This document shows positions 7,841 through 62,466 of a stretch of 64,000 nucleotides of DNA, in pieces (within the stretch, counting starts at the first letter, position 1; each line of letters starts with the position of its first letter). The position numbers and the translations under genes were made by a program. The notes under the pieces are model-generated. The model worked only from the letters and a program-made list of their open reading frames with translations, had not been told where the DNA came from and searched no databases. This DNA is from an uncultured Acidobacteriota bacterium (GTDB taxonomy: Bacteria > Acidobacteriota > Vicinamibacteria > Vicinamibacterales > UBA2999). The stretch is from NCBI GenBank assembly GCA_963841895.1, contig CAWJEO010000014.1, positions 38,303 through 102,302 of the forward strand, written 5' to 3'.

Positions 7841-7846
7841 AGCCTG

Positions 7847-8770: not shown

Positions 8771-8794
8771 AGGGCAAGCTCCTTTCGAGGAAAA

Positions 8795-10940: not shown

Positions 10941-10962
10941 AGGAGGGCGATCGCACGACGGC

Positions 10963-11755: not shown

Positions 11756-11789
11756 TCACGTCCGTTCCTCGTGCCGTGTTCACCGGACT

Positions 11790-11912: not shown

Positions 11913-11915
11913 CTG

Positions 11916-12828
11916 TTACTTGATCGCGTCGTAGATCGACTCGACGTTCGCCAGCAGCCGCGCCTCCGCCGGCGCCGCGTAGCCTGTGTACCTGGCCGGA
12001 ATCGCCCACGCCGCGACAATCTGACCGGGCGACTGCCCCGCCTTCTTGCCGCTCTGCACGAACGCCAGGAAGTCCTTGTTGAAGTCCGAATACTCCTTCA
12101 GATCCGCCATCGTCATCTGAACGCTGTGACCGGTGACGATCGTGTCGACGTTCTTCGACGCCGGCGTGCGCCTTGGCCAGCGTGTCGCCGATCTCGAGAC
12201 CGGTGCCGCCGTTGTTGCCGTCGAGGAGCGGCAAGTTCTTGCCGGAGAAGATGTCGCCGGCGTGCATGATCCGCAGCGCCGGGAACACGACCCACGTGTC
12301 ACCGTCGGTGTGACCGCGGCCGAAGTAATAGAGGTCGATCTGATCCGGGCCGCTCATCAGCGTGAGCTTGTCCTTGTAGGTGCGCTTCGGCAGCCCACGA
12401 CCCTGGTTGTTGTCGAAGATGTTGCCGTTGGTGCCCTTCATCCGCTTCATGCTCGCCGCCGCGTTCTCGTGCGCGACAACGTCAACCGTCGTCGGGAACT
12501 CCACGTTCCCGCTCACGTGATCGCCGTGGGTATGGGTGTTGATGATCATCGTCACCGGCTTGTCGGTCAGCTCTTTGATCTTGTCGAGGATCGGCTGCCC
12601 CCATCCCGGGTTCTTCGTATCGACGACCACGACGCCCTTGCTGGCCACGAAGACCGCGGTGTTGCCGCCACCGCCAGCGCCGCGCAGGACGAAGAAGTTG
12701 TCTTTCAACTTCTCGACTTCGACGACCTTTGGCTTGTCCGCCTGCGCCGCCGGCTGCTGACCACCAGCGACGACCGCCGTCGCCAGACCCACAAACACCA
12801 ACGCGCCCAATACTGTTGCTCGCTTCAC
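11916..12828 (-). CDS. secreted MBL-fold metallo-hydrolase (paralog B), one frame break near 12160-12180
   Basis: N-terminal 240 aa near-identical architecture to 7847-8770 (THTHGDHVSG); C-terminal KNVDTIVTGHS...YTGYAAPAEARL in second frame 11916-12302. Confidence 0.7.
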
Positions 12829-12848
12829 GACGTGACTCCTCGCTGTTC

Positions 12849-12916
12849 AAAGTTCCGAAGTTCCGGGTTCCTATGTTCCTAAGTTCCTGACACCTGACCC
12901 CTGATCCCTCGATCCC
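12849..12916. repeat. two-part tandem-word element (AAGTTCCGAAGTTCCGGGTTCCTATGTTCCTAAGTTCC + TGACACCTGACCCCTGATCCCTCGATCCC), same family as 8795-8866 in opposite orientation
   Basis: read directly; between beta-lactamase-family stop (12920) and MBL paralog B start (12828). Confidence 0.7.
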
Positions 12917-12919
12917 TTC

Positions 12920-14224
12920 TTAGTTCAGAACCGCTTGATACACCAGATTCCGCGACAGGCCCTGAATCTCGCCGGTCGTGCGGCCGTTCCAATGCTGGAT
13001 CATGCCGACGAACGTCACGTCCATCACCGGGTCGATCCAGAACCAGGTGCCGCCGATGCCGAACCAGTCGAACGATCCGTCCGAGACCGACTCGCCGGCG
13101 GCCGCGGCATCGATCACGACGCGCGGCCGAGGCCCCAGCCGGTGCCCGCCCGGACGGTCTTGAGCGCGTCGGCCTGGAGATGATTCGTGCGCAGCATCTG
13201 GACCGTGCGCGGCGAGAGGTACTGTTTGCCGCCGAACTCGCCGCCGTTGAGGAGCATCTGCGCGAACCGCAGATAGTCGTCCGGCGTCGAATAGAGTCCG
13301 CCGCCGCCGGACGGCCCGAGCGGAACCACCGTCGACTCGTCGGGATTGCCTCGGGCGGCGTCGACTTGCCGTCCGGCCCGTCGCGATGCAGGCGCGCGAG
13401 ACGGCCGAGCTTCTCCTTCGGCACGTAGAACGCCGTGTCCTTCATGCCGAGCGGATCGAACAGGCGCGTCTTGAGGAAATCGGCGAACGGCTGGCCCGAC
13501 ATCTTCTCGACGAGGTAGCCCTGCACGTCGACGCCGATGCTGTACTACCAACGCGTGCCCGGCTGCGCCAGCAGCGGCGTCTTCGCCAGCTTGTCGATCA
13601 TCGTCTGCAGCGGCGCGGCCGGGTTGAGCGTCTGCTTCCTTGATGATCTGCCGATCGACGGCATTGGCTGGATTGAGCACGTAGCCGAGGCCCGCCGAGT
13701 GCGTCAGCAGCTCGCGCATCGTCATGCTGCGGCGCGCGTCCTCGAGCTTCATCGTGCCGTCGGCGTTGTCGCCGGTGTGGACCTGCAGCTTGGCAAACTC
13801 CGGGATGTAGCGCGAGACGGGATCGTCGAGCCGCCACTTGCCTTCCTCGAACAGCATCATCATCGCGACGCCGGTGATCGGCTTGCTCATCGAGTAGATG
13901 CGGAAGATCGTGTCGCGCTGCAGCGGCTCCGGGGCGGCAGGTTCTTCGGCCGAAGGCGTTGGCGTTGACAATTTTGCCGTGCCGGGCGAGGAGCGACGTC
14001 ACGCCCGCAACGCGCCCTTCGTCGACGAAGCGCTTCAGGCCGGCATCGAGACGGCGCAGCCGTTCGGTCGAGACGCCGACCGACTCGGGCGTGGCCTTCG
14101 CGAGATCGCGAGCCGAGTCCGCGGTCCGAACGGCCGCGCCCGACGCCCGCGTCGCGGCGGTCTGTCCGTGCGGAGCGGCAACGAGCGTGAGTGCGACGAG
14201 CAGCGGCAGACACAAACGAATCAC
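12920..14224 (-). CDS. beta-lactamase-family serine hydrolase (class C/esterase-like), secreted; at least four frame breaks
   Basis: signal MIRLCLPLLVALTLVAAPHG; SxxK motif FRIYSMSKPITG; C-terminal GGGGLYSTPDDYLRFAQMLLNGG and FDWFGIGGTWFWIDP spread over four frames. Confidence 0.6.
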
Positions 14225-14276
14225 CGGCGTCCTCCTGAAGGGTCGTGCAGGTTGACGGCCCGGATTATACGCGGCG

Positions 14277-15929
14277 TCAGTCGTTGGTGGCCTTCAGCGC
14301 CCGCTGCGCCTCGACCACCGCCGGCGATCCCGGCGCGGCGCCTGGCATCGCGGCGAGCTCCTGAAACCGTGTCCGCGCCATCGCGGTGTCGCCCGCGGCC
14401 TGCGCGGCCCGCGCCAGGCCGAGCAGCGAGGGCGTCCGTTTCGGCGTGCGCAGCAACGATTGCTGGAACGCCTGCACCGCCTCTTTCGCTCTGCCGGCTT
14501 CGAGCAGCATCTCGCCGTACAACTCGAAGGCGGGCTTGATCGGATCGGGCGGGCCGGACGGCGCGTTGAGCGTCCGGCTTCGACGTCGGCAGCTTCCGGG
14601 CGAGTTGCAGCGCTTCGTCCTTTTGCCCCTTCGCCCAACGAATGACGGCGCCGAGCTCTTTCTCGCGGATGACGTGCGGCTTGGCGGCGTACGACGTCGG
14701 ACCCTCTGCGATTCGACCGGTCGCCGCTTTCAGTGCCGCCTCGGCCGCCTCGGCCGTCGCCAGGTCGCCCAGTTTTCGCGGCGCTGACGCCGACGATGTA
14801 GGCCCAGGTCGCGGAGCCGTCGTAGTCCGCCATGCCGCGGCATACCGGGCATGTTCGGCGTGGTCGCCGCCTGCCGCTGGCGCCGCCGGGGTCGCGAGCG
14901 AAAGCTTCTCCCACTGCGCGGTGTCGGAAATGTAGCCGCGCGCGCATGCCCAGGTAGCCGTCGCGCACGCCGCGGTTCTGCGGATTGCGATCCGCCGCCT
15001 GCTTCGCGAGTTCGATGTTCTTCTTCGCGTCGTCGAACTTGCCGAGCATGCGTTGGCGTAGGCGAGCCACGAGAGCGTGTGGAAGTCTTCGCGGCCTTCG
15101 GCGCAGCTTCATGCGCGTGTTGAGGTCGACGGCGGCCTTGTGCGACTGATGTTCGGACCGCTCGGCGTCCTGCCACATGCCGAGCTGAACGAAGATGTGC
15201 GACGGCATATGCGAGCGCATGCGCCGCCGACGGCGCAATCTTCGCGTAGGCTCGTGCCGCCGTCAGGCCGAGCGGCGCATGATCGGGATCATCGAAGGCG
15301 TGAATGACGAAGTGCGCCGCGCCAGGATGCTTCGGATTTTTCTGGAACACCGCTTGCGGCGATCGACGCGGCGAGCGCCTGGCGGCGGAATCCGGTGTCG
15401 CCGGGCCGTCACGCGTCCCGAGCAGCGACAGCGCATAGAACATCGCGATTTCGTGATCGTCAGGCCACTGCGCCGTACATCCGCGCCAGCGCGTCCGAGT
15501 ACGCCTGGTCGCGCGCGAGCTTGTCGCCCGGCGGCGAAGTACAGACTGATGAGCGCCTCGAAGTAACGCCTTCTCCTTGGGCAGCTTCGCTTTGCTCGAC
15601 TCGACCGGCGGGCGGTGGCGTCGAGCCGATCGAGCGCTTTCTTCGCCGCCTCGAGATCCTGCTGCGCCCACAGCGGATGGTTGTGGCTCATCGCCTCGCC
15701 CCAGTAGGCCATGGCAAACGGTGTTGTCGGCCTTCTGCGATTGCTGGAACGCTTCCGCGGCTTCGTCGAACTGGAAGTTGTGCAGCGCCTTGACGCCGAT
15801 GAGAAACGCGTCTTGCGCCGCGCCGGTCGCGGAGGTCGGAAAGGTGATGGTGCCGAACTCCTGCGAAGCGCGGGAGTCGCTCAGGAATAGCGCGATGCAC
15901 AAAGCCGCGAGTGCGGAGTGGCGGATCAT
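14277..15929 (-). CDS. TPR-repeat protein, secreted; multiple frame breaks
   Basis: signal MIRHSALAALCIALFLSDSRA; conserved blocks MAYWGEAMSHNHPLW, HMPSHIFVQLGMWQD, TPR-like C-terminus across four frames. Confidence 0.5.
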
Positions 15930-20663: not shown

Positions 20664-20768
20664 ATGCGTTGGCGCACTGAGGCAGGGATCAGGGATCAGG
20701 GATCAGGGATCAGGGACGGTCGAGACGTTACGGCGAACTCAGGAACTTAGGAACTCAGGAACCTCGAC
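20664..20768. repeat. two-part tandem-word element: (GGGATCA)x5 + spacer + CAGGAACTTAGGAACTCAGGAACC
   Basis: read directly between convergent ggt (stop 20659) and psuG; psuG reads into it (C-terminal ..SSRFLSS, stop at 20747-20749). Confidence 0.7.
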
Positions 20769-21681
20769 GAGAGCGCAACCGCCAACTGCGCCCCGACGCG
20801 AGCATTATTCTTCAAGAGCGCGACGTTCGCGCGCACGCTGGCGCCGCCGGTGAGTGCGCGCATGCGGTCGAGGAGAAACGGCGTCACCTCGCGCCCGATG
20901 AGGCGCTGGCTGTTCGGCTTCGGCTAGCGCCGTCGTCAGCGACGCGCTCGTAGAGGTCGCGATCGAGCTCGTTCTCGGCTTCAATCGGGTTCGCGACGAG
21001 CACGCCGGACCCCCACCCCAATGCCCCGTGTGCCTCGATCGCCGCTGCGAGCTCGCCGATCGACTCACAGCGCGCGTCGACCCGCAAGCCGCTCGATCGC
21101 CGATAGAACGCCGGGAACTCGTCGGTCTGATAGCCGAGGATTGGCACGCCCAGCGTTTCGAGCATTTCGATTGTCCGCGGCAGGTCGAGAATCGCCTTGG
21201 CTCCGGCCGAGACGACGGCCACGGGCACGCGCGACAGCGTGAGCAGGTCGCTCGACACGTCGCCGGTTTCGGTCACACCACGATGCACGCCGCCGATCCC
21301 GCCGGTGACGAACACTCGAATCCCGTTGGCGTGCGCCGCAATCATCGTCGCCGCGACGGTTGTCGATCCGGCTCGTCGCGACGCCAGCACCGCGCCGAAG
21401 TTGCTGATGTTCGTCTTGACGACGTCAGGGGCCGTGGCCAACCGGTCGAGCTCGCTCTCGCCGAGCCCGACGATCACGGCGCCATCGAGAATGCCGATCG
21501 TCGCTGGGATGGCGCCGTGTTGACGCACTTCGGCTTCGAGCGCGCGCGCGACCTGCAGTCCCTCCGGGTACGGCAGCCCGTGCGTGACGACCGTCGTCTC
21601 CAGCGCGACGACCGGCCGGCCGGCGGCGAGCGCCTCGGCGACCTCAGGGCGGCAGATGTAGGGCGCGCTCACGACGGCGAG
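20747..21681 (-). CDS. psuG: pseudouridine-5'-phosphate glycosidase (IndA/PsuG family); two frame breaks near 20890-20960; same ORF as upstream BtpA gene
   Basis: PVVALETTVVTHGLPYP, NISNFGA, FVTGGIGGVHRG, VSAGAKAILD, TDEFPAFY, ..VTPFLLDRMRALTGGASVRANVALLKNNA. Confidence 0.7.
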
Positions 21682-21687
21682 TCGAAT

Positions 21688-22443
21688 CGGCCCGAGACGC
21701 GCAAACGCCGAGGCGACGGCCTCCACGTTCGCGCGGTCGAGCGGCTGATCCCAGCGGCCACCCTGCTTCACCGACGAACCGACGATGTAGCCAGCGGCGG
21801 CGGCAAACTGCGGGAGGTTGCGGGCCGTGAGCCCCGAGCCGACCAGCACCGGGACATGCACTTGTCGGGCGACGGCGTCAACCTCCTCCGGCGAGGCCGG
21901 CACACCCGTCGACGCGCCGGTGACGATGACGCCGTCCGCCTGGAAGAACGCGGCGGCCTCGGCCGTCTCGACAATCGACACGTCGGCGGTGATCGCGTGC
22001 GCGCTGTGCTTCTTCTTGATGTCGGCAAAGACGAGCACGCGATCCGCGCCGATCTGCCGGCGATAGCGCAGCAGATCGCCGGCACAGGACTGGATCACGC
22101 CCTCGTCGGCGACGTGCGCAAAGACGAAGCCCTCGACGCGGACGAAGTCAGCGCCGCTCGCATGGGCGACCGCGATCGCCTCGCGGTTGGCGCCGGCCAG
22201 GACCTGCACGCCAAGCGGCAGATCGACGTCACGCTTGATCGCGCAGGCAACCGCGGTCATCGCCGCGACGATCTCCGGACCGACGCCGCCGCGCAGATAC
22301 GGCCGATCGTGCATGTTCTCGATCGCCAGGGCCGTGAACCCGCCGTCACGATAGACCGCCGCCTCGGTCACGGCCTGCTCGAGAATCTGATCGATCGAGC
22401 GGACCGCCGACGGCGTGCCCGGCAACGCGCCGACATGAATCAC
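21688..22443 (-). CDS. BtpA/SgcQ-family TIM-barrel protein (no stop before psuG: fusion or lost stop)
   Basis: MIHVGALPGTP start, ..FADIKKKHSAHAIT..VTGASTG..PVLVGSGLTARNL..GYIVGSSVK typical of PF03437. Confidence 0.65.
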
Positions 22444-22496
22444 GCCGATCAGTGCCCGCGGCGAGCCAAGGCGCTTCTGAAACGTCGAGCGGGGCG

Positions 22497-24096
22497 TCAG
22501 AACAACCTCCTGTAGTCCTCATAGCAAACCGGGACGCCGACGACAAGGCTGCGGCGGCTGGCGATCGCCCGGCTCACGGCCTCGGCCAGCTCACCCGGAT
22601 CCGCCGTGCGCAGCCCCTCGACGCCGCACGCCTCCGCGATGCGCACCGAATCGATCGGCCCGAAGTCCATGCGATACGGCGGCAGCTTGCGCCCCTCCTG
22701 TGCGAGTTTGATCAGCGAATAGCTGCCATCCTCGAGGACGATCGTGACAAAGGGCGCGCCGACCCGCTCGGCCGTTTCGAGCTCCTGCGCATTCATCGAG
22801 AAGCCTCCGTCGCCGACCGCAGCAATCACCGGCGCGTCGGGACGCGCCAGCTTCGCACCGATGGCCGCACTCAGGCCGTAGGCCATCGCCGACAGGCCGT
22901 TCGACATCCAGAAGGTCGACGGCTGACGGCTCGGCCAGAACTGCCCGAACAGATACTTGTGCGAGCCGACGTCGGTCGTGACAATCGTCTCGGGCGGCGC
23001 GACCGACGCCAGCGCGCGAATGATATCGCCGGGCCACATCGTGTCAGCGGCACCGGCGTCTCCGTGCAACAGATCGCGCCGCTTCTCCTGGAAGTCCGCG
23101 AACGGCGCATGCCCACGACGCCGGCGGCGGTGTCGCCGCGAGGGCCTCGAGCAGTGCGGCGTGGTTCACGAGGCTCGTGCCGGCCGGCACGACGCCGCAC
23201 GACATTCGGCGATTCCAGCACCCACGTGATCGGCAGCTCGGCGTGCCAGGTCTTGTCGATCTCGACGGGATCCAATCCGAAGCCGATGCGCGCATCCGAC
23301 GCCGCCAGCGCATCGCACATCAGCCCGTCCGCGGCCATGCCGCCGACGACGCCGACAAAGCGGTCGCTGGTCTCGTCAACGATGCCTTTGACCTTCGGGG
23401 TCACGGCAAACGGCAGATTCCAGGCGTCCAGCCAACGGCGAAGCGGCGCGGCGATCGCATCGTCAGCACCGAGACCGATCAGCACGAGGGGACGCGTCGC
23501 GGTCTTCAGCGTCATCGTCAGATCGCGGGCAACGGCGGCTGCGGTCGCGGGCTCCGATGGCGTGCGACGGGACGCGGCGCGACCGGCGCTCGGCCGCGCC
23601 GGCTTCAACGCCTCACGCGCCGACAATGGTGAGATACGACACTCCGAGCGGACGCTCCATCGCCGCCGCGATCGCGCGCGGGACGGCGTCATGGACGGTC
23701 TCCGTCGTGATCGCCGCAACGTACCTGGCCATCGGGCGATAGACGTCGTGGAGCGGGAGCAGCTGATGGGTGTGGCTCGCCGGGAACTCGGATCGGAATC
23801 TGCGCTGAGATCGCGACCAGCGGCTCCTGATCGAGATAGGCGTTGGCGATCGGCAGCATCAGATTTGCGGCGCCGGGCCCGAGCGTCGCGAGCACGACGC
23901 CGGGTTGCCGGCGGAGCTTGCCGTAGACCGCGGCCGCGATGCCGGCGTTCGCCTCGTGCCTCATCAGAACGAAATCCACGCCTGCCTGGCGCAGCTCGTC
24001 GATCAGCACCAGCACTTCACCGCCAGGGAGCCCGAAGACGCGCTCGATCCCTGCGTCGGCGATCAGTCGGGCCGTAGCGGCCGCCGTCGTCGTCAT
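22497..24096 (-). CDS. thiamine-pyrophosphate-dependent enzyme (acetolactate-synthase large-subunit-like); at least two frame breaks
   Basis: N-terminal TPP domain (FGLPGGEVL..), central domain, C-terminal TPP-binding GDGGFSMN..LEDGSYSLI across three frames. Confidence 0.7.
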
Positions 24097-30171: not shown

Positions 30172-30180
30172 ACGCGCGTA

Positions 30181-30280
30181 TCTGGTGATGCTGATGATCT
30201 GGCGATCTGGTGATCTGACCCGCTGATCCGATCGCTCAGTTCACGAGATCACCAGATCAGCAGATCAGCGATCTCTGCGA
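30181..30280. repeat. palindromic tandem-word element (GGTGATCTG family): TCTGGTGATGCTGATGATCTGGCGATCTGGTGATCTG ... GAGATCACCAGATCAGCAGATCAGCGATC
   Basis: read directly between convergent kinase (stop 30171) and zinc-ribbon gene (stop 30281). Confidence 0.7.
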
Positions 30281-40946: not shown

Positions 40947-41207
<261 letters not shown>

Positions 41208-41255
41208 TAAAATCGCTCCAGAAAGCCCCGCGCGAGCCGGGCAAGAACACTGCCA

Positions 41256-41309
41256 CTAGCGAAGCGGAGCCGACGGCTCTTATTCCGGACGGTTCCGCAG
41301 CTTCGCTAG
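41256..41309. terminator. hairpin CTAGCGAAGC ... GCTTCGCTAG at IclR 3' end
   Basis: 10-bp perfect stem read directly, overlaps IclR stop. Confidence 0.45.
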
Positions 41310-44395: not shown

Positions 44396-44401
<6 letters not shown>

Positions 44402-44493
44402 TCTGGCGATGTCGTGATCTGGCGATCTGATGATCTAAAGCCCTGATCCGATCTCCTGGCTCCTCAGATCACCAGATCACCACATCACCACAT
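44396..44493. repeat. palindromic tandem-word element (GGTGATCTG family): GATCTGGCGATGTCGTGATCTGGCGATCTGATGATC ... CAGATCACCAGATCACCACATCACCACATC
   Basis: read directly between convergent kinase and DUF4097 gene. Confidence 0.7.
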
Positions 44494-44503
44494 CGCAAGA
44501 TTC

Positions 44504-47261: not shown

Positions 47262-49058
47262 ATGGCGATGCTGTCGTCGCTGACCAATCGGATCTTCCTC
47301 GCGAGCACGCTCCTGGCCACCGTGTCGATCGGCTTTGCGGTGTACTTCGTCAGCAGCCAGCTGCGCAGCGAGGCCGAGGCCGAACTGCAGCGCGACCTCC
47401 GCGAAGCGGTGACGCTGGTCGAACAGCAGCGGACGAGCCTGTTCGAGACCTTCACGCGAACCGCGCGCCTGATCGCCGACCTGCCCAAGTTCAAGGCCGC
47501 GGTCGAGACGCGCGACGCGCCGACGGTCGAGCCGATCGCGCGCGACTATCAGCAGCAGGCGGGGTCGGATCTGTTTCTGGTCACGGATCCCGACGGCCAC
47601 GTGCTGGCCGCGCTCGGCGGCCTGCCGGTCGCGGTCAGCCGGGCTCTCGACGCGCCGGGCATCGCGCGGGCGCGCGGCGGCACGCCGGCGACGCGTTCTG
47701 GCCGCACCCGAACGGCGTGCTGCAGGTCGTCAGCGTGCCGGTGACGATCGGCCTCGAGCGGCCTGAACTGCTCGGCACGCTCACGATCGGCTACCTGCTC
47801 GACAACGACCGCGCCGCGTCGTTCAAGGCGCTGACCGGCGCCGACGTCGCGTTCGCCATCGACGGCCAGGTGCGCGCGTCGACGCTCGGCCCGGACGCGC
47901 ACGCGCGGCTGGCCGGCGCTGCTCGGCTCCGAGCTGGTCCCGCGCACGATGATCGGCGGCAGCGAGTACGCCGCGCTCGTTCGCGCCCTGCACGCGCCGC
48001 ACGACGAGGCCTCGACCGGCGCCGACCGTGCCGATCGCCATCGTCCTGCGATCGCGCACCGAGCGGATGCGCACGCTCTCGGCGATTCAGACCGGGCTCG
48101 GCCTGGTCGACGCTCGCGACGATCGCTGCTGGCCGCCGCCATCAGCTACGGCGTGGCGCGCACGGTGACGCGGCCGCTCGCGACGATCACCAATCACATG
48201 CGGGACATCGCCTCGACCGGCGACCTGACGCGCAAGCTGCGGCTGAGCGATTCCGTCGAGCTGGCACGACGAAGATACGCGGCTGCTCGCCACGACCTTC
48301 AACACGCTCACCGACTCGGTCGCGCGGTTCCAGCGCGAGGCCGCGCAGCGCGAGCGGCTGTCGTCGCTCGGCCGGATGTCGACGATCGTCGCGCACGAGA
48401 TTCGCAATCCGCTGATGATCGTCAAGGGCGCGCTGCGGCAGCTCACGCGCGACGGCGCGACCGCCGACGACATCCGCGAAGCGGCGGCCGACATCGACGG
48501 CGAGACCGATCGCCTCAATCGCGTGGTCAACGAAGTGCTCGACTTCGCCCGGCCGATTCGCTTCGAGCGCTCGCCGACCGACATCAACGCGCTGTGCCGG
48601 GATGCGGTCAGCGCCGTCGCGGCGGCCGCCGGATCCGACCCGCCGGTCAGCGACCGAGCTCGACCCGACCGTCCCTCCGCTCGAAACCGACAGCGAGAAG
48701 CTGCGCACGGCGCTGGTCAACCTGCTCACCAACGCGCGCCAGGCGGTCGCTGGCGCGAACGTCTGCCGACGGCGCGGAACCGGACGCGCCGGTCACGCTT
48801 GACGACCGGCCGGCTGACCGATCGACCGGGTGGCGATCTCGATCCGCGATCGCGGCGTCGGCATCGGCGCCGACGATCTGCCGCGCATCTTCGATCCATA
48901 CTTCACGACCCGGCGCGCCGGCACCGGCCTCGGCCTGCCGATCGCCAAGAACATCATCGATGCGCTCGGCGGCACTCTCACCGTCGCCAGCACGCCCAGG
49001 CGCCGGCACCCGGATCCGGATCGAGCTGGGCGACGCGCCGGCGGGACGAGCCTCATGA
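47262..49058 (+). CDS. sensor histidine kinase (periplasmic sensor, HAMP, HisKA, HATPase_c); several frame breaks
   Basis: TM1 IFLASTLLATVSIGFAVYFV, H-box MSTIVAHEIRNPL, N-box LVNLLTNARQA, G-boxes IRDRGVGIGADDLPRIFDPYFTT..GTGLGL; stop TGA 49056-49058. Confidence 0.75.
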
Positions 49059-50427
49059 CACCAGGCGGCAGCATTCTTCTCGCCGACGACGAAGAGAAGA
49101 TTCTCAAGACGCTGAGCCGTGCCCTGCGCGAGGACGGGCACGAAGTCGTCACCACGCCGAGCGCGCTGCAGGCGCAGAAGCTGCTCGTCGATCGGTCCTT
49201 CGACCTGCTCGTCATCGATTACCTCATGCCCGAGCGCACCGGGCTCGAAGTGATCCGCGAGCTTGCCGCCACCACGCCGGAAGGCGAGCGGCCGGCGATC
49301 GTCATGATGACGGCGCACGGCACCGTCGAGAGCGCGGTCGAGGCGATGAAGCTCGGCGCCCGCGACTACCTGCAGAAGCCGTTCGAGGTCGAAGAGCTCC
49401 TGGTCACGGTACGGCGGCTGCTCGAAGAGCAGCGGACGCGAACCGGGCTTCGCTATCTGCTCAGCGAGCGCGACGCCGAGTTCAATCACTACGGCCTGGT
49501 CGGGCCGAAGCCGCGCGGTCATGGACGTGATCAAGCGCGCCGAGCTGGTCGCCGAGTCGCGCAGCACGGTCCTGGTGACCGGGCGAAACCGGCACGGGAA
49601 AGGAGCTCGTCGCGCGCGCGATTCACGCCCGCAGCGCGCAGCGCGACATGCCGCTCATCAAGGTGAACTGCGCGGCGATTCCGGAGACGCTGCTCGAGTC
49701 CGAGCTGTTCGGCCACGTGCGCGGCGCCTTCACCGGCGCGTCGTTCACCAAGAAGGGGCGCTTCGCGCTGGCCGACGGCGGGACGATCTTCCTCGACGAA
49801 ATCGGCACCGTCAGCATCACCGTCCAGGCCAAGCTGCTGCGCGTCCTGCAGGATCGCGAGTTCGAGCCGCTCGGCGTCGGAGCGCACGCAGAAGGTGGAC
49901 GTCCGCGTCATCGCCGCGACCAATCGCGATCTGCGGGCCGATGGTGAGCTGCGAGCAAGTTTCAGGAGGATCTCTACTACCGCCTCAACGTCATTCCGAT
50001 CGCCATTCCCCCGCTTCGCGAGCGGCGCGAGGACATTCCGATGCTGGTCGAGCATTTCCTCCGCCGCTTCGCGCGCGACAGCGGCAAGCGAATCGACAGC
50101 GTCGAGCAAGGCGTGATGGAGGAGCTCTCCCGCTACGACTGGCCCGGCAACGTCCGCGAGCTCGAGAACACGATCGAGCGCGCCGTCGTCCTCGCCACCG
50201 ATGCGCGCCTCACCCGCGAGACGGTCTGGCTGATGGGCGCGGTCTCGCCGCCGGTGTCGGGACTGCCGTCGCAGCGGCTGCACGCGAACCTCGAGTGGGC
50301 GGAGCGCGAGACGATTCGCCGCGCGCTCGAACAATCGGGCGGGGTCAAGAAGGACGCCGCCGAGTTGATGGGCATCAGTCAGCGTGCCCTGAGCCACTAC
50401 CTGCAGAAGTACCGGATCGACAACTGA
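49054..50427 (+). CDS. sigma-54-dependent Fis-family response regulator (NtrC-type: REC + AAA+ sigma-54 activator + HTH); one frame break near 49880-49960
   Basis: REC (LLADDE..D; DYLMPE), Walker [15 protein letters not shown] sigma-54 contact motif, ESELFGH, C-terminal [20 protein letters not shown]; ATG overlaps kinase stop (ATGA). Confidence 0.85.
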
Positions 50428-52936: not shown

Positions 52937-53345
52937 ATGAAGGTTCGCTACGGCATTCTTCTTTCGCTCCTGCTGGCCGCGGCCTGCGGCGGGCAGCAAC
53001 GACAGCAGCGGCGGCGGCACCCCGACGACGCCCCGACGCCGCCGACCACGCCGCCGGTCGCAGACGACGACGATCACCATCACGGCGGCGGGCATCAATC
53101 CGCAGCGCATCACCGTGTCGCCGGGCACGCGGGTCACCTTCGTCAACAACGACACTCGCACCCACGAGATGAACTCGGATCCGCATCCGACCCACGGCGA
53201 CTGCCCGCCGATCGACGATGTCGGATTCCTCTCGCCGGGACAGTCGAAGCAGACCGGCAACCTCACGACCGCGCGGACGTGCGGCTTTCACGATCACAAC
53301 CAGCCGGATACCGCGTCGCTGCGGGGACAGATCATCGTGCAGTAA
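52937..53345 (+). CDS. small cupredoxin-like lipoprotein, copy 2 (TCGFHDHNQ); one frame break after lipobox
   Basis: MKVRYGILLSLLLAAACGG lipobox; ITVSPGTRVTFVNNDTRTHEMNSDPHPTHGDCPPIDDVGFLSPGQSKQTG..TCGFHDHNQPDTASLRGQIIVQ. Confidence 0.55.
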
Positions 53346-53465
53346 GGCCGCGGCCGGTGCGGCCGTCGGGAGCGGCGCGGCAGGCTCCAGCGAGGCCGAC
53401 TCAGTCCGCCGTAGCCTGGGCGGAGGCGGACGGCCAAGCGGCGCCCGGGCGATGAGCGCCGGCCT

Positions 53466-54268
53466 TCAGGCGCCGCGGAAGACGGGTTTCCGCTTCTCGA
53501 GATTGGCGGCGATGCCTTCGCGCGCGTCGTCGCTCTCGAACAGCCGCTGCTGCAGCTCGCGCTCGAGTGCCAGGCCTTCCGAAAAGCCCATTTCCAGTCC
53601 TGACTGCACGGCCCGCTTGATGTGGCCGACGGCCTTGCTGGCGCGGTGCGGCGGCGTGAACTGCGCGGCGTAGTCGAGCACGGCGTCGCGGAACGACTTG
53701 CCCCTTCAGCTCGTCCTCGCCCCACACGTGGGTCACCAGGCCGAGTCCCTTCGCGTCTTCGAAAGACAGCAGCGCGCCGAGCGTCATCAGCTCGATCGCC
53801 TTGGCCTTGCCGACGATCCGGGCCAGCCGCTGGGTGCCGCCGGTGCCGGGCAGCACGCCCAGAGCGACCTCGGGGAGGCCGATCTTGCCGCCGCCCTGTC
53901 GCGCGATCCGGAGATCCGCGGCCATCGCCACCTCGAGCCCGCCGCCGACGGTGTGCCCGTTGAGGGCCGGCGATCACGAGCTTCGGCGTCTGCTCGAGAC
54001 GGTTCATCGTCTCGTTGGCGTGCAGGCAGAAGTAGTACTTGAACGACGGATCGGCGTCCTTGAGCATGCCGATGTTGGCGCCGGCGCAGAAGAACTTCTC
54101 GCCCGCTCCGGTGATGACGATGACGTGCACGGCTGCGTCCATCCGCGCCTCGAGCACGGCACGGTCGATCTCCTGCATCATCTCGTAGGAGTAGGTATTG
54201 GCCGGCGGATCGTTCAGCTCGATGAGGGCAATGCCGTTGCTGGCGGTGTAGGTGATGCGTGTAGGCAT
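53466..54268 (-). CDS. enoyl-CoA hydratase/isomerase (crotonase) family protein; at least two frame breaks
   Basis: IVITGAGEKFFCAGANI oxyanion-hole region; GGGLEVAMAADLRIA; C-terminal ..LEKRKPVFRGA. Confidence 0.7.
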
Positions 54269-54403
54269 ATCGCGATTCTTGGAGTGCGCGGATTCGTGAT
54301 CTGCGAACGCGACGACGCGCATCGTGCACGTCACAACGAGCGGAACGCTCTGCGACGAATCGGCGCAATCCGAGATCTGCGTATCTGCGGTATCTCTGCG
54401 TAC

Positions 54404-55828
54404 TCACGCGTCCGTCCGCACGTACTCGAAGTCGATCGGCAACCGATTGATCCCACGCGGCGGCGGCGCGATGTAGTTGGCGAACTGGCCCGGCTTGTAG
54501 ACCGGGATCGACTGGATGCTGCGCAGGTAGTCCTTGTCCGCCGTCGTCGGCAGCCATTCGCTCTTCCGGCGCTCCCATTCGTCCGCGCTCATTGGCTGTC
54601 CCGCCGGATCGAAGTGGCGGCCGGCGAACACGCCGATCTGGCGATTGAACTTGCGCGACGGCAGGTAGATCCGATCGGTCATGCCGTTCGCTTCGAGCAC
54701 GCGCTTGTTCCAGCGATCGACGCCGGCCTGGCAGTCGCCGACATACCAGTCGCGCAGCACCTCGTTGAGGGCGTTGCGCATCGGGATCTCCTGACGATCC
54801 GGCGCGCCCTGCTCGGTCATGAGGTCGAGCAGATACACGCTGTCCTCGAGCACGTGGTCGTCGTCGTACTTGTCTTCCTCGGCGCGGCCCTTGAGACCGT
54901 TGGAGAAGTAGTTGGCGGCGTTGCTCGACACTTCGCTGCCGTGCAGGTCGAGGCTCTGGCTGAACCAGAAGTTGACGAACTTCTGGATGAGCGGGATGTC
55001 GATACCGCCGACCTTGCGGACGTCCTCGGAGAAGCCGGCTTCCTTCATCAACTGGCAGGTGCGCTCGAGGATGCGGGCGATGCCGCTCTCGCCGACGAAC
55101 ATGTGGTGCGCCTCTTCGGTCAGCATGAAGCGGGTCGTCCGCGACAGCGGATCGAGCGAGCTCTCCGACAACGAGAGGAGCTGCGACTTGCCGTCGCGAT
55201 CGGTGAACATCGTGAAGGCGAAGAAGTCGAGCCAGGTGTCGATCGGCTCGTTGAACGCCTCGAGCATGCGCGGCGAATCGGTGCCGCTGCGGCGCTCGAG
55301 CAGCGCCTCCGCTTCTTCGCGGCCATCACGCCCGAAGTACGAGTGCAGCAGGTAGACCATCGCCCAGAGGTGGCGGCCTTCCTCGACGTTGACCTGGAAG
55401 AGGTTGCGCAGGTCGTACAGGCTCGGGCAATGCGCGCCGAGCATGCGCTGCTGCTCGACGCTCGCGGGTTCGGTGTCGCCCTGGAGGACGATCAGCCGGC
55501 GAAGGGGATTGCGGAATTCGCCGGGCACTTCCTGCCACACCGGCTGGCCCTTGAAGTCGCCAAAGCCGATGCGTCGATCGGCGGTCGGCTCGGCCAGGAA
55601 AATGCCCCAGCGATAGTCGGGCAGCTTGACGTAGTCGAAGTGCGCCCAGCCCGCCGAATCGACGCTCACCGCCGTCCGCAGGTAAACCTGATGCTGATCC
55701 TGGAACCCCTGCGGTCCCATGTCGCGCCACCAGTCGAGATAGGCCGGCTGCCAGTGCTCGAGCGCGCGCAGAAGGCGCTTGTTCCCCGAGAGGCCGACGT
55801 TGTTGGGAATGCGTTCGTTGAGCTGCAT
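54404..55828 (-). CDS. boxB: benzoyl-CoA 2,3-epoxidase (benzoyl-CoA oxygenase) component B, di-iron
   Basis: 474-aa intact ORF with BoxB-characteristic N-terminus MQLNERIPNNVGLSGNKRLLRALEHWQPAYLDWW and di-iron EExH contexts. Confidence 0.85.
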   Translation of the reverse strand: MQLNERIPNNVGLSGNKRLLRALEHWQPAYLDWWRDMGPQGFQDQHQVYLRTAVSVDSAGWAHFDYVKLPDYRWGIFLAEPTADRRIGFGDFKGQPVWQEVPGEFRNPLRRLIVLQGDTEPASVEQQRMLGAHCPSLYDLRNLFQVNVEEGRHLWAMVYLLHSYFGRDGREEAEALLERRSGTDSPRMLEAFNEPIDTWLDFFAFTMFTDRDGKSQLLSLSESSLDPLSRTTRFMLTEEAHHMFVGESGIARILERTCQLMKEAGFSEDVRKVGGIDIPLIQKFVNFWFSQSLDLHGSEVSSNAANYFSNGLKGRAEEDKYDDDHVLEDSVYLLDLMTEQGAPDRQEIPMRNALNEVLRDWYVGDCQAGVDRWNKRVLEANGMTDRIYLPSRKFNRQIGVFAGRHFDPAGQPMSADEWERRKSEWLPTTADKDYLRSIQSIPVYKPGQFANYIAPPPRGINRLPIDFEYVRTDA

Positions 55829-55843
55829 GAGGCTGAATCCTTG

Positions 55844-55940
55844 TCAGTTACAAGTTGCAAGTTCACAAGTTCAAAGTTAGAGTTCGGCGGACAGCGTTCG
55901 ACCGCTCCAACTTTGAACTTGGAACTTGGAACTTGTAACT
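55844..55940. repeat. roughly 36-bp-stem hairpin built from CAAGTTC words (GTCAGTTACAAGTTGCAAGTTCACAAGTTCAAAGTT ... AACTTTGAACTTGGAACTTGGAACTTGTAACTGTC) between boxC stop and boxB RBS
   Basis: read directly; boxB SD AAGGA lies just downstream. Confidence 0.65.
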
Positions 55941-55942
55941 GT

Positions 55943-57609
55943 CTAGGTTCTTTTCCAGTCGAACGTCGGCCTTCCCTCACGGCCGTAGACCGTGAGCGCG
56001 CCGCGCTCGCCGACGGCGTTGGGACGCTGGAAGATCCAGTTCTGCCACGCGGTGAGGCGGCCGAAGATCTTCGTCTCCATCGTCTCGGGGCCGGCGAAGC
56101 GGAGGTTGGCTTCCATTCCGGTCAACGCGTCGGGCGAGAATGCCGTGCGCTCTTCGATGGCGAGGCGGACTTCGTCCTCCCAGTCGATGTCGTCCGGCGC
56201 GAACGACACGAGGCCGGCGGCGAGCGCTTCCTCCGCGTCGAACGGCCCGTCGTGCGCGAGGACCTCGTCGACGTGACCTGGCTCTCCGAGGAAGCGCGTC
56301 TGCAGCCGGGTGAGGCCGGTGCTCATCGGGTACGACCCGCCGTTCATCACCGACAACTGGATCGTATTCGCTTCGTCCGGGTGCGCGAGCATGTACGAGC
56401 GATCCGCGGCGAGCGCGAGCTCGAACAGCGTCCCGGCGAAGGCGTTGCCGGGCTCGATCAGCGCGAAGAGGCTGCGGGCGGTGAGGTCGAGCCGCTTCAG
56501 CGTCCGCCGGATGTGGCCGATGATCTCGCGCACCAGCCAGTGATCGCGATGCGCGTCGAGCGTTCGATCGACATCGAGGACGGCCTGCGGATCGCCGGTT
56601 GCGCGCAGCAGAATCGTGCCGATCTCGGGCTCGTTCAGCCGCAACCGGAGGAGCGCATCGTCGAACTCGCGAAACGCCCGCAGGGCCCACGACTGATCGC
56701 CGGCCTGCTGGAACGCGTCCGGCGAGTCGGGCTGCGGACTGTCGGGGGCGCTGATCGTGAGCTCGCAGACCCGCTTCGCGCGATCGATCGAGCCGCGCAC
56801 GTATCGATACTGAATGGTGTCGCCGTCAATGGCCGGATTGAGCGGTGCCAGCGAAATCCCGGGACCGGTTGCGGGCCGATCGGATTCGGCCGCCATCGCA
56901 GTGCGCGCGTTCGGTCACGGCGCTCCTGAAACTGACGGCTCGGCACGACTTTGTCGACAAGCCGCCATTCGACGGCTCGCTTGCCCCGCACGCCTTCAGT
57001 CAGCGTGCTGAACGCATCGGCGAGATCGCGGCGCACCTTGCGCTTGTCGACGACGCGCGTGAGACCGCCGGTTCCCGGCAGCACGCCGAGGAGCGGCGTT
57101 TCCGGCAGTGCCACCGAGGCATTGCCATCGTCCACCAGGTAGATCTCATCGCAGGCGAGCGCGAGCTCGTAGCCACCGCCGGCGCAGATGCCGTTGAGCG
57201 CGGCCAGGAACTTGACGCCGCTCGATCGGCTCATGTCTTCCATCCCGATCCGCGTCTCGTTGGTGAACTTGCAGAAGTTCACCTTGAAGCCGTGGCTGGA
57301 CGAGCCGAGCATGAAGATGTTGGCGCCGGCGCAGAAGATGCGCGGCTTCAAGCTGGTGACGACGACGGCGTGGACCTCGGGATGCTCGAAGCGCAGCCGC
57401 TGCAGCGCGTCGGCAAGCTCGATGTCGACGCCGAGATCGTACGAGTTGAGCTTCAGCTTGTAGTCGGCGGGACGGAGGCCGGCATCCTCCTTGACGTCCA
57501 TGGCCAGCGTCGCCACCGCGCCGTCCACCGAGAGTTTCCAGTGCTTGTAGCGATCCGGCGAGGTTTCGAAGGACAACGAGGGCGCGGGCGTCTGGAGAGT
57601 GTGCTCCAC
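55943..57609 (-). CDS. boxC: benzoyl-CoA-dihydrodiol lyase (2,3-epoxybenzoyl-CoA dihydrolase); one frame break near 56890-56920
   Basis: N-terminal crotonase-like domain (VTSLKPRIFCAGANIFML; LNGICAGGGYELALACD) in 56635-57609 frame; C-terminal BoxC domain in 55943-56896 frame. Confidence 0.8.
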
Positions 57610-57626
57610 GCCGCGAGTCTACACCA

Positions 57627-57645
57627 GTTTAAACGAGCGTTCAAA
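57627..57645. promoter_or_regulatory. candidate TetR operator: inverted repeat TTTAAACG-AG-CGTTCAAA in the boxC/tetR divergent intergenic region
   Basis: 8-bp arms with one mismatch; TATAAA box at 57653-57658. Confidence 0.45.
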
Positions 57646-57666
57646 TCCGTGGTATAAACGCACGAG

Positions 57667-58278
57667 GTGGCAAAACCCGCAAACGGCGCCGATCGCCGCA
57701 TCGAGATTCTCAAGAGCGCTGCCGCCGCGTTCCGCCGCCGCGGCTATCACGGCGCGAGCGTCGACGAGATCGCCTCGGCGCTCGAGATGACGAAGGGGAA
57801 TCTCTATTACTACTTCGAGAACAAGGAAGAGATCCTCTACGCCTGCCACGATTACTCGCTCGACGTGCTGCTGGCGCTGATGGCGGAAGTGCAATCCGAA
57901 CCCTCGACGCCGCCGGACGAGAAGCTGCGCAAGCTGATTCTTGCGTTCATCCACACGATGCTGGACGAACTGCAGGGCACCGCGCTGACGCTCGACCTGC
58001 AGGCGCTGTCGCCGGCGCTCCTCAAGCGGATCATCGCCAAGCGCGATCGCTTCGACCGCGGCCTGCGCGAGATCATCCAGCAGGGCATCGATCAACAGCT
58101 GTTCCGCGCCGGCGACCCCAAGATGATTGGCTTTGCGATGATGGGCGCGGTCAACTGGATCACGAAGTGGTTCGATCCCGCTGGACCGATGTCGTCAGAA
58201 CAGATTGGCCAGCGGTTCGCCGATTACCTCGTCGGAGGACTGTTGAAGAGTTCTGCAGAACTAAGAACGAAGAACTAA
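57667..58278 (+). CDS. TetR/AcrR-family transcriptional regulator
   Basis: HTH GYHGASVDEIASALEMTKGNLYYYFENKEEIL; 203 aa intact; divergent from boxC. Confidence 0.85.
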   Translation: MAKPANGADRRIEILKSAAAAFRRRGYHGASVDEIASALEMTKGNLYYYFENKEEILYACHDYSLDVLLALMAEVQSEPSTPPDEKLRKLILAFIHTMLDELQGTALTLDLQALSPALLKRIIAKRDRFDRGLREIIQQGIDQQLFRAGDPKMIGFAMMGAVNWITKWFDPAGPMSSEQIGQRFADYLVGGLLKSSAELRTKN

Positions 58279-58298
58279 GGTCTTAGTTCTTGTTCGTC
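58256..58298. terminator. hairpin GAACTAAGAACGAAGAACTAAG-G-TCTTAGTTCTTGTTCG (same word family as 333-396), bidirectional between tetR and MBL hydrolase
   Basis: read directly; encodes the last codons of TetR (..AELRTKN-stop). Confidence 0.6.
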
Positions 58299-58305
58299 GC
58301 GATCG

Positions 58306-58997
58306 TCACTCCGCCGTCTCCCCGGGTTTCAGCTCCAGCACCTGAATGCCACTACCGTCGAGCGCGGACTTCAGCGCCTCGGGGGTGCCCGTCAGCAGCG
58401 GGAACGTGCCCCAGTGCATCGGCACGACCTGCTTGACGCCGAGCCAGCGCGCGGCCATCGCCGCCGTGTCTGGGCCCATCGTGAAACGATCGCCGATCGG
58501 CAGGAACGCGATGTCGGGCTTGTAGATCTCGCCCAGCAGCTTCATGTCGCCGAAGAGCGACGTGTCGCCCGCGAAGTACAGCGTCTGGCCGTTCTCGAGG
58601 CGGACGATGAAGCCCGCCGGCTCGCCCAGATAGACGATGCCGTTGTCGTCGAAGCTGCTGCTGTGGCAGGCGTCGGTCATCGTGATGCGCAGCCCCTTGG
58701 CGTCGATCGTCCCGCCTTTGTTCATCGGCTCGACATGCTGCACGCCCTTGGTGCCGAGCCACGACGTCACTTCCCAGATGCCGACGACGGTGGCATTGGT
58801 GGCCTTGGCCATCGCCGCGGCGTCGGTGATGTGGTCGCTGTGACCGTGCGAGACGAGGATCAGATCGGCGCGCGTCGGTCGTTTCGCCTCGGGAAAACTC
58901 GGATTTCCCGTGTACCACGGATCGAACAGGATCACCTTCCCGCCGGGGGTCACGAGGAAAAGGAAGAGTGGCCGAGCCAGGTAATCGAGAGAGACAT
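58306..58997 (-). CDS. MBL-fold metal-dependent hydrolase (UPF0173-like); one frame break near 58960
   Basis: LVSHGHSDHI motif; FDPWYTGNP; C-terminal GDRFTMGP; N-terminal MSLSITWLGHSSF in other frame. Confidence 0.7.
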
Positions 58998-59026: not shown

Positions 59027-59083
59027 AATCTGGTGATCGTGGCTGAGTCTGGTGATCTGGTGATCTGGTGATCGAGTGACGTC
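59027..59083. repeat. GGTGATCTG-family tandem-word array (AATCTGGTGATCGTGGCTGAGTCTGGTGATCTGGTGATCTGGTGATCGAG)
   Basis: read directly; left boundary of a 530-nt apparently non-coding region. Confidence 0.6.
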
Positions 59084-59610: not shown

Positions 59611-59676
59611 GAGATCACCAGCATCGCCAGAACCAACATCACCACATCGCAACATCTCCACATCGCGACATCTCAG
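59611..59676. repeat. inverted partner array (GAGATCACCAGCATCGCCAGAACCAACATCACCACATCGCAACATCTCCACATCGCGACATC)
   Basis: read directly; right boundary of the non-coding region, just upstream of lipA. Confidence 0.55.
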
Positions 59677-59693: not shown

Positions 59694-60597
59694 GTGATCG
59701 AATCGCCTTTGACGTTCGTGCGGCCCCGGGAGCCGAAGCCCGAGTGGCTGAAGGTCCGCGCGCCGGGATCCGAGAACTATCTCCGGCTCCGCGGCATCAT
59801 GCGCGGGCTGAAGCTGAACACGGTCTGCGAGGACGCGCACTGCCCCAACATCGGCGAGTGCTGGCATCACGGGACCGCGACGTTCATGATCCTCGGCGAC
59901 ATCTGCACGCGCGCCTGCTCCTACTGCGCAGTCGCGCACGGACGGCCGACCGAGCTCGATCTCGACGAGCCGCGGCGCGTCGCCGAAGCGGTCAAGGCCA
60001 TGGGCCTGAAGTACGCCGTCGTCACATCGGTCGATCGCGACGATCAGGCCGACGGCGGCGCCGGAATCTTCGCCCAGACGATTCACGAGATTCGCGCGGT
60101 CATGCCGGACACGCGCGTCGAGGTGCTGATCCCCGATTTCAAGGGCGAGGCCGGGCCGCTGCAGACGGTCCTCGACGCGCGGCCGGATGTGCTCAACCAC
60201 AACACCGAGACGGTGCCGCGGCTGTATCGGATGGCGCGATCGGGCGGCAAGTACGCGCGGACGCTCGAACTGCTCGATCGGGCCAGGACCTACGCGCCGG
60301 CGATTCCGACCAAGACCGGCCTGATGGTCGGCCTCGGCGAGGAGCACGACGAGCTCGTGCAGGTGTTCCGCGATCTCCGCGGCGTTGGCGTCTCGATCCT
60401 GACCATCGGCCAGTACCTGCGCCCGTCGCCGGATCACGCGCCGATGACCCGCTATTACCACCCCGACGAGTTCGCGCGCGCTCAAGCGCGCGGCGATGGA
60501 CCTGGGCTTCGTGCACGTCGAGGCCGGCCCGCTCGTCCGCAGCTCCTACCACGCGCACGAACAGGCTGACGCCTACGACCTCGCACACGGCCGGTGA
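59694..60597 (+). CDS. lipA: lipoyl synthase; one frame break near 60480
   Basis: CEDAHCPNIGEC and CTRACSYCAV cluster motifs; C-terminal DLGFVHVEAGPLVRSSYHA in +1 frame, stop 60595-60597. Confidence 0.85.
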
Positions 60598-60648
60598 GAC
60601 GCGGTAGCGCCTCATCAGCCGCGGAGCGACCAATCGTCCTGGACACCC

Positions 60649-61992: not shown

Positions 61993-62437
61993 ACGTTCGT
62001 GCTATCGACGGCGGATTCAGTATCGCGACACCGATGCGTCGGGCATCGCGCACTTCACCATCTTCTTCCTGCTGTGCCGAGGAAGCCGAGCACGCGATGT
62101 GGCGCGAGCACGGTCTGAGCGTCGAGCCGCGCGAGACCGACATCGGCTGGCCGCGGCGTGTCGGCGTCGTTCGAGTTCCTGCGCCCGCTCAGGTTCGAAG
62201 ACGAAGTCGAGGTGCAGTTGCGCCTGATCGGGCGAACGTCCAAAACCCTGCCGCTATCAGGCCGTCATCGTCCACGACGGCAAAGTCGCGGCCGCAGGGA
62301 CGATGACAACGATCTGCGTCGAGAAGCGTCCGGGCCGGCCGCTCCGCGCGATTGCCATCCCGGCAGAAATCGCCGGACCGCTTCACAGTCGTCGCGCCGA
62401 TCGAGGTTCCCGGCCTCAGAGGGTCTCGATCCCCTGA
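61976..62437 (+). CDS. 4HBT/YbgC-type hotdog acyl-CoA thioesterase; heavily frame-disrupted
   Basis: RIQYRDTDASGIAHFTIFF ... SFEFLRPLRFEDEVEVQLRLIGRT ... AVIVHDGKVAAAGTMTTICV in three frames. Confidence 0.5.
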
Positions 62438-62466
62438 CCCCCGATCCCTGATCCCTGACCCCTACG
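62427..62466. repeat. GATCCC-word element (GATCCCCTGACCCCCGATCCCTGATCCCTGACCCC) between convergent genes
   Basis: read directly. Confidence 0.55.

Follow-up and report, generated by a model that had tools for sequence, protein, structure and literature searches.

A boxC-boxB-hydratase operon with a divergent TetR-family regulator, a putative palindromic operator, and no adjacent boxA in an uncultured member of the Vicinamibacterales

The model gene clusters for the aerobic benzoyl-CoA (box) pathway, in which ring opening depends on oxygen, those of Aromatoleum (Azoarcus) evansii, Azoarcus sp. CIB, and Paraburkholderia xenovorans, carry boxABC together with boxD, bclA, and the regulator BoxR. 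Of their products, BoxB is highly substrate-specific, BoxC co-purifies with BoxB and is needed to overcome BoxB product inhibition, and BoxA acts transiently and in small amounts (PMC4498308). On the regulatory side the closest described systems include two TetR-family proteins: PaaR (TTHA0973) of Thermus thermophilus, which represses phenylacetate genes and whose reported effector is phenylacetyl-CoA, the first CoA thioester of its pathway (Sakamoto et al., 2011); and MbdR of Azoarcus sp. CIB, which represses a benzoyl-CoA-type pathway and has as its inducer 3-methylbenzoyl-CoA, the first aromatic CoA ester there. We found no TetR-controlled box operon described in the literature. Here we analyzed 64 kb of a metagenome-assembled genome (MAG) of an uncultured soil member of the Acidobacteriota (Vicinamibacterales; UBA2999; contig CAWJEO010000014.1), hereafter the window, in which region 53466-58278 holds four genes: boxC, boxB, and an enoyl-CoA hydratase of the crotonase type (ech) on the minus strand, with a tetR gene diverging from them on the plus strand.

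Comparative evidence leads us to propose, with a probability of about 0.72, that boxC, boxB, and ech form an operon that would be repressed by the TetR protein and induced by benzoyl-CoA, and whose reductase would be supplied from elsewhere. The features that enter the argument, with the evidence for each, are as follows.

53466-54268, minus strand: crotonase (enoyl-CoA hydratase, ech), last of the three operon genes; each fragment with a Pfam ECH_1 match
54404-55828, minus strand: boxB; TIGR03225, alignment to PDB 3PER, and selection analysis
55839-55947, minus strand: long hairpin in the boxC-boxB spacer; RNA fold and inverted-repeat arms
55943-57609, minus strand: boxC, with a GTG start; TIGR03222 in two halves and score after repair
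57616-57621, minus strand: TAGACT, -10-like hexamer for boxC; conserved TAnRnT
57628-57645, no strand assigned: 18-bp putative operator TTTAAACGAGCGTTCAAA; uniqueness, conservation, and co-occurrence with TetR
57653-57658, plus strand: TATAAA, -10-like hexamer for tetR; direct reading of the sequence
57667-58278, plus strand: TetR-family regulator of 203 amino acids, TetR_C_24 type; PF00440 and PF17932
58306 to about 59000 (5' end approximate), minus strand: MBL-fold metal-dependent hydrolase of the PRK00685 family; NF001911, 253 bits

For comparison, a BoxB scan restricted to one genome per species returned 80 loci (cited below by L number where they must be told apart), and the closest, at 85-91% amino acid identity, came from MAGs of Vicinamibacterales (Acidobacteriota). 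The arrangement of tetR divergent from boxC-boxB recurred in about 55 Vicinamibacterales MAGs, usually with the hydratase next.

The open reading frame (ORF) of BoxB, the diiron benzoyl-CoA 2,3-epoxidase, was intact and scored 735 bits against the TIGR03225 equivalog (cut-off 499). It aligned with the Azoarcus evansii BoxB (PDB 3PER) over the full length, nearly without gaps, at 624 bits, with both ExxH diiron stretches aligned between the two proteins. In a codon alignment with 13 relatives the ratio of non-synonymous to synonymous substitution (dN/dS) was 0.07-0.20, with a median of 0.125 over 91 pairs, and boxB is thus under purifying selection. The two halves of BoxC lay in different frames and matched TIGR03222 positions 2-219 and 226-547; the repaired protein, of 554 amino acids, matched positions 2-547 with 857 bits (cut-off 712.3), so that the family membership of this gene depends on the frameshifts being errors. 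The crotonase, when repaired, gave an uninterrupted protein of 266 amino acids that scored 196 bits with PRK07658, 148 with PaaF, and 127 with PaaG; it is a generic enoyl-CoA hydratase that falls below every equivalog cut-off, and it comes after boxB in most Vicinamibacterales loci. The initial annotation had assigned these genes to the box pathway, and the scores of BoxB and repaired BoxC above their NCBIfam equivalog cut-offs bear that out. All three genes it had listed are present, and to its description must be added that boxC and the crotonase are broken in frame, which it had not mentioned.

It is unlikely that BoxB and BoxC act on a different aromatic acyl-CoA, for example a substituted benzoyl-CoA, which the TetR would sense instead. 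Such a substrate would be consistent with the missing linkage to a benzoate-CoA ligase, with a regulator type unlike that of the model systems, and with the identity of only about 62% between acidobacterial BoxB and the proteobacterial BoxB proteins recovered, but the scores of both enzymes stand well above cut-offs trained on benzoyl-CoA enzymes, the alignment to the A. evansii protein is full length and nearly gap-free, and the narrow substrate specificity described for BoxB (PMC4498308) also argues for benzoyl-CoA.

The frame breaks were mapped by alignment with five to six close relatives. Two single-base insertions were found in boxC, one in the TTT run at 56929-56931 and another about 30 nucleotides (nt) downstream within 56897-56903, and the crotonase was split into three pieces where one extra base stood in each of two runs, CCC at 53964-53966 and GGGG at 53701-53704; three of the four insertions thus fell in homopolymer runs. 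Genes nearby were broken in the same manner when compared with clean relatives, with at least four frame segments in a histidine kinase (47265-49037), three in a sigma-54 response regulator (48886-50424), and two in lipoyl synthase (59694-60618). Given the homopolymer insertions and the same kind of break in neighboring genes, lipoyl synthase included, it is most likely that boxC and ech were broken by assembly errors and not by gene decay, and any ORF-based reading of the window should allow for them. With two breaks apiece in boxC and ech, and with boxA, boxD, and the ligase not found in 64 kb, one might read the cluster as a decaying remnant, with boxC and ech as genuine pseudogenes and boxA lost in the same process of erosion. 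We consider this very improbable, as the breaks are concentrated in homopolymer runs and shared with lipoyl synthase and the two-component system genes, the genes are otherwise undamaged and regain full family scores after repair, intact orthologues occur in dozens of relatives, and boxB has been held under the constraint given above.

The evidence for regulation centers on the interval between boxC and tetR. An inverted repeat, TTTAAACGAGCGTTCAAA, lies at 57628-57645 (in the boxC direction, TTTGAACGnnCGTTTAAA), and seven of the eight positions of its half-sites are complementary. The initial annotation had described such a palindrome, and the repeat is indeed present, although the coordinates it gave, 57627-57645, were one base off. 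A search of the window with the degenerate 18-mer, allowing up to two mismatches, returned this site as the sole match, with 0.03 expected by chance. Across loci, the pattern TTKRAACGnnCGTTYMAA, again with up to two mismatches, was found once per locus and always between tetR and boxC in 55 of the 55 loci in which TetR is divergent from boxC, and it was not found in the loci without TetR (approximately 15-20). Two Blastocatellia loci (L070 and L072), with the gene order boxC-boxB-tetR-ECH-ECH-SDR, carry a perfect palindrome, TTCGAACGAACGTTCGAA, 31 nt upstream of boxC, and their operon-internal TetR_C_24 protein is 27% identical to that of the window.

Across 56 sequences in an anchored alignment, the site carried 1.70 bits of information per position, compared with 0.21 and 0.40 in the two flanks, and was nearly invariant among relatives whose flanks had diverged. 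Variation is free at the two bases of the central spacer, a pattern to be expected in the site of a dimeric helix-turn-helix protein. The core AACGnnCGTT, with its 2-nt spacer, is identical to that of the PaaR consensus CNAACGNNCGTTNG (PMC6651687). Taken as a comparative result, these patterns support the view that the palindrome behaves as the operator of the divergent TetR across 55 related genomes, and the operator proposed at the outset gains from them, the site being conserved, unique, and found where TetR is found in those 55 loci.

The position of the site relative to possible promoters suggests how it may work. Towards boxC, TTGAAC (57639-57644) falls in the left half-site and is followed after 17 nt by TAGACT and, 6 nt further, by the GTG start. 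A TAnRnT element occurs 4-9 nt after the site in 55 of the 56 sequences, with a GTGGA or ATGGA start 5-9 nt beyond that element in 41 of them. Towards tetR, the right half-site offers TTTAAA/TTAAAC, from which 18-19 nt lead to TATAAA and another 8 nt to the tetR GTG, and on the tetR side of the site the relatives have kept a TGnTAnnn-like element. This spacing suggests that the boxC and tetR messages are leaderless or nearly so. Since the half-sites overlap -35-like hexamers of both divergent promoters, one bound dimer would block both -35 regions.

The same overlap would be expected if the palindrome were part of a promoter, or the site of another factor, with its conservation owed in part to promoter function; alternatively, the TetR might bind only when liganded, in the co-repressor mode of its close structural relative AibR, which binds DNA only with isovaleryl-CoA. 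Together we regard these alternatives as distinctly unlikely. The site tracks the TetR gene, in 55 of 55 divergent and two of two operon-internal cases and in none without it, the dyad symmetry with a free 2-nt spacer is typical of a dimeric helix-turn-helix protein and is not needed for a -35 box, and repression that needs the ligand would be an odd arrangement for a catabolic operon.

The regulator itself combines a TetR_N helix-turn-helix domain (PF00440, 55.5 bits) with a TetR_C_24 ligand domain (PF17932, 106.5 bits). Pfam and NCBIfam scans of the neighboring ORFs revealed no regulator of the BoxR/BzdR type in the window or in the clean relative L006, which agrees with the earlier assignment to the TetR family rather than to that type. 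Its solved relatives, named after PMC10636190 (the source for 3VPR), PMC5389471, and PMC4424350, are listed with the expectation value of each match.

3VPR: PfmR of Thermus thermophilus, E = 8e-30
3DCF: TetR/AcrR-family regulator, uncharacterised in this analysis, second-best match, E = 5e-25
5K7F, 5K7H, and 5K7Z: AibR, which binds isovaleryl-CoA, E = 1.5e-22
4W97: KstR2, E = 1.6e-17
4UDS: MbdR, E = 2e-7, a weaker match
3WHB: FadR, E = 8e-7, a weaker match

Several of these proteins regulate acyl-CoA metabolism or sense CoA thioesters, and by this family resemblance benzoyl-CoA is the most likely candidate effector.

A BoxA protein from a locus labelled as a beta proteobacterium (L075, 11485-12705) served as the tblastn query for the missing reductase. 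No match was obtained in the 64-kb window (best E = 0.9), and BoxA was not found within 10 kb on either side of boxB in any of the more than 60 acidobacterial loci recovered, some of which lie on contigs of 0.4-5 Mb. All four loci that do carry BoxA (L073, L075, L076, and L077) have it immediately after boxB, and all four are labelled proteobacterial. The initial annotation had noted the lack of boxA beside boxB and had named a boxA just outside the window as the finding that would overturn it; the window ends only 5.7 kb past tetR, and none was present in relatives whose contigs extend about 7.5 kb past that gene. The arrangement without boxA is therefore the rule in every acidobacterial locus recovered and not peculiar to the window, and the absence is demonstrated for the neighborhood of boxB, not for the whole genome. 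Pfam searches of the large ORFs and six-frame scans with PROSITE-type motifs likewise found no AMP-dependent ligase, aldehyde dehydrogenase, thiolase, or FNR-type reductase in the window, in keeping with the earlier statement that no benzoate-CoA ligase is nearby, and boxD and the rest of the lower pathway were also not found there. One 546-amino-acid ORF considered as a possible CoA ligase was rejected, as it is the sigma-54 response regulator. The transient action of BoxA in small amounts, set beside the co-purification of BoxC and its relief of BoxB inhibition, would explain why boxC and boxB stay together and the reductase gene need not.

Further searches with BoxA among proteins gave a mixed return. 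A word-indexed search retrieved only close relatives of the query, the few named ones from Casimicrobiaceae, and was uninformative for Acidobacteriota, and an exhaustive search of representative proteins found full-length BoxA-like proteins at 44-51% identity. The four whose contigs were examined had P450 or Rieske oxygenase neighbors, never boxB, and this search yielded no acidobacterial BoxA. As an observation in its own right, metagenome contigs L081-L086 encode proteins with the BoxA architecture (two [4Fe-4S] clusters and an FNR-like domain) that are 44-50% identical to BoxA; their genes have P450 or Rieske oxygenase neighbors and not boxB, and this type of reductase therefore serves several kinds of oxygenase.

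Separately, an FdxA-type ferredoxin (window 40950-41279, minus strand) was observed downstream of the box operon, at a distance of 3-12 kb, in ten loci or more, with 68-86% identity among them. In L053 (13126-14525) and L069 (13334-14691) it comes immediately after the crotonase, alongside a NuoB-like (Oxidored_q6) protein and a 2x[4Fe-4S] protein. FdxA-type ferredoxins are usually housekeeping proteins. The ferredoxin is a candidate electron donor for BoxB, and ordinary synteny could also explain the linkage.

Since boxB is under purifying selection, an electron donor must exist, and it may be that there is no BoxA orthologue in the genome at all and that BoxB in Vicinamibacterales, and in the wider Acidobacteriota, is reduced in another way, for example by a free ferredoxin and a general ferredoxin-NAD(P)H reductase. 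We place this at somewhat under even odds. It draws on the contrast between the four proteobacterial loci and the more than 60 acidobacterial ones, on the selection acting on boxB in these lineages, on the company kept by the four examined BoxA-like proteins (44-50% identical), and on the recurrent ferredoxin; against it, an unlinked boxA would have escaped scans that covered loci and not whole genomes, general synteny could account for the ferredoxin linkage, with the same TPR/aspartyl-protease gene following in both arrangements, and the ferredoxin is of a kind that ordinarily keeps house. This account refines the proposed operon with its externally supplied reductase and does not exclude it. 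A broader statement, that Vicinamibacterales and apparently Acidobacteriota generally have a BoxA-independent benzoyl-CoA epoxidase with a non-BoxA donor and with a PaaR-like, acyl-CoA-sensing TetR replacing BoxR, is a little more tentative again. If true, it would make the textbook BoxAB pairing a proteobacterial special case.

Drawing these observations together, we propose that a ligand-free TetR dimer on the single 18-bp site TTTGAACGnnCGTTTAAA would silence boxCB-ech and, most likely, its own gene. An aromatic acyl-CoA, most likely benzoyl-CoA, would bind the TetR_C_24 domain, the repressor would leave the DNA, and BoxB and BoxC would be made. Effector-driven release of this kind has precedents in PaaR with phenylacetyl-CoA and MbdR with 3-methylbenzoyl-CoA, and the AibR mode would be the minority alternative. 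BoxC would then open the ring, and the enoyl-CoA hydratase would probably act on dehydroadipyl-CoA products further down the pathway. The ligase that forms benzoyl-CoA, BoxD for aldehyde oxidation, the thiolase and final beta-oxidation functions, and the electron donor would be encoded elsewhere. For the reductase of BoxB, an unlinked boxA has about the same likelihood as a different reductase or a ferredoxin.

Several points weigh against this proposal. Repression and the effector are both argued from comparison, the effector wholly from family resemblance, and the regulatory logic could be inverted, given that AibR, the third-best structural relative, binds DNA only with isovaleryl-CoA bound. 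A consensus scanner found no sigma-70-type promoter in 53000-58500, and the proposed hexamers are weak and below its threshold; the TAGACT promoter escaped a call by matching only eight of 12 consensus positions, so that the promoter geometry is a reading of conservation. The step of the crotonase in the pathway is not assignable, its PaaF and PaaG scores being under the cut-offs. The frame breaks are known from a single assembly, which leaves a slim chance that some are real. BoxA, BoxD, and the ligase lie out of view, and what is in view amounts to part of the pathway.

Beyond the core arrangement the relatives varied in gene content. Some close relatives (L008 and L019) add a 3-hydroxyacyl-CoA dehydrogenase after the hydratase. 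Three loci of more distant acidobacteria (L052, L055, and L060; BoxB identity 76-78%) have neither TetR nor operator, and their operons are longer (approximately 8200-15300). In L052 and L055 the order is boxC-boxB-MBL hydrolase-hydratase-aldehyde dehydrogenase-hydroxyacyl-CoA dehydrogenase, and in L060 the aldehyde and hydroxyacyl-CoA dehydrogenases come directly after boxB. The aldehyde dehydrogenase of these three loci shares a BLAST cluster with the enzyme encoded next to boxC in L077, a proteobacterial locus.

The MBL-fold hydrolase (NF001911/PRK00685, 253-280 bits), convergent with tetR in the window, adjoins tetR in most Vicinamibacterales loci and lies between boxB and the crotonase in L052 (11298-12140) and L055 (11292-12134). 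Its recurrent position beside tetR or inside the operon suggests that it is functionally tied to the pathway, possibly as a thioesterase or lactonase.

Because the window assembly is frameshifted, the remaining flanking genes were annotated through clean relatives such as L006. Downstream of the hydratase these are cupredoxin-like proteins, a DUF5777 barrel, a sigma-54 two-component pair, a TPR protein, an IclR regulator, and a ferredoxin, and the tetR side holds the MBL-fold hydrolase, lipoyl synthase, an FAD-dependent oxidoreductase, and a radical-SAM protein. A link of these flanking genes to aromatic catabolism is not evident from their annotation. Elsewhere in the window, at 20887-22518 on the minus strand, one ORF joins BtpA and Indigoidine_A (pseudouridine-5'-phosphate glycosidase-like) domains and adjoins a TPP-enzyme fragment at 22500-23165; either a gene fusion or the loss of a stop codon in an error-prone assembly may account for this ORF.

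The boxC-boxB spacer contains a 109-nt hairpin (55839-55947) built from inverted arrays of CAAGTTC-type heptamers, with a folding energy of -58.8 kcal/mol (z = -9.7). At the same spacer position, the hairpins or arrays of relatives are built on different repeat units (AAGTTAC, CAGTGGT, GAAGGCA, and GCAGATGAC). Similar period-7/8 arrays were observed at 332-396, 7721-7842, 8794-8865, 12850-12917, 20683-20762, and 30180-30273, and further ones at 44399-44494, 54375-54395, 59028-59079, 59617-59674, and 62427-62463, many of the arrays in the window being hairpins of inverted 7-8 nt tandem repeats. They have the look of a class of short repeats that evolves fast and is spread genome-wide, and they resemble the cyanobacterial short tandemly repeated repetitive (STRR) heptamers.

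These results have implications for how the pathway is sought and studied. Selection acts on a compact boxCB module that is conserved throughout the Vicinamibacterales, an order known mainly from MAGs (all relatives recovered here are uncultured) and whose role in aromatic turnover rests mostly on annotation. Such organisms would be passed over by annotation pipelines in which boxA is a requirement for calling the pathway, and the locus raises the question of which partner reduces BoxB where no BoxA is encoded beside it. The regulator and its putative operator form a precise pair that is directly testable and could serve, for example, in a benzoyl-CoA biosensor.

Compared with the model box clusters, the locus has orthologues of BoxB and BoxC by NCBIfam equivalog, the same boxC-boxB order, and genes of beta-oxidation type alongside. 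It differs in having only three operon genes, with no boxA after boxB and with boxD, bclA, and a transporter absent, and in having a TetR_C_24 regulator where those clusters have the XRE/shikimate-kinase-like BoxR (PMC10803450).

The TetR proteins most similar in sequence over both domains, PfmR (TTHB023, 3VPR) and AibR, both regulate acyl-CoA metabolism, and the AibR operator is an 18-bp near-perfect palindrome whose protein binds a CoA thioester. Their operators differ from the site described here (TACCGACCGNTNGGTN for PfmR and GCTACCTACCGGTCGGTAGGT for the AibR operator probe), neither protein is linked to box genes, and AibR takes its DNA only in the presence of ligand. MbdR resembles the present case in family, type of pathway, and kind of inducer, and its operators overlap -10 and -35 boxes, but its pathway is anaerobic, its operator (ATACN10GTAT) is unrelated, and it is a distant homologue (4UDS, E = 2e-7). 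PaaR shares with the window protein the TetR family, a CoA-dependent aromatic epoxidase pathway, and an AACGnnCGTT core within its consensus CNAACGNNCGTTNG, with half-sites CNAACG/CGTTNG and a 2-nt spacer. In contrast, the outermost bases of the window site are T and A (TTTG/TTTA versus CN), and the pathway is paa there and box here. On this comparison the chemistry appears to be the same as in the model box systems, a minimal operon without boxA appears to be the norm in an abundant soil lineage, and a PaaR-like TetR with its operator appears to stand in place of BoxR.

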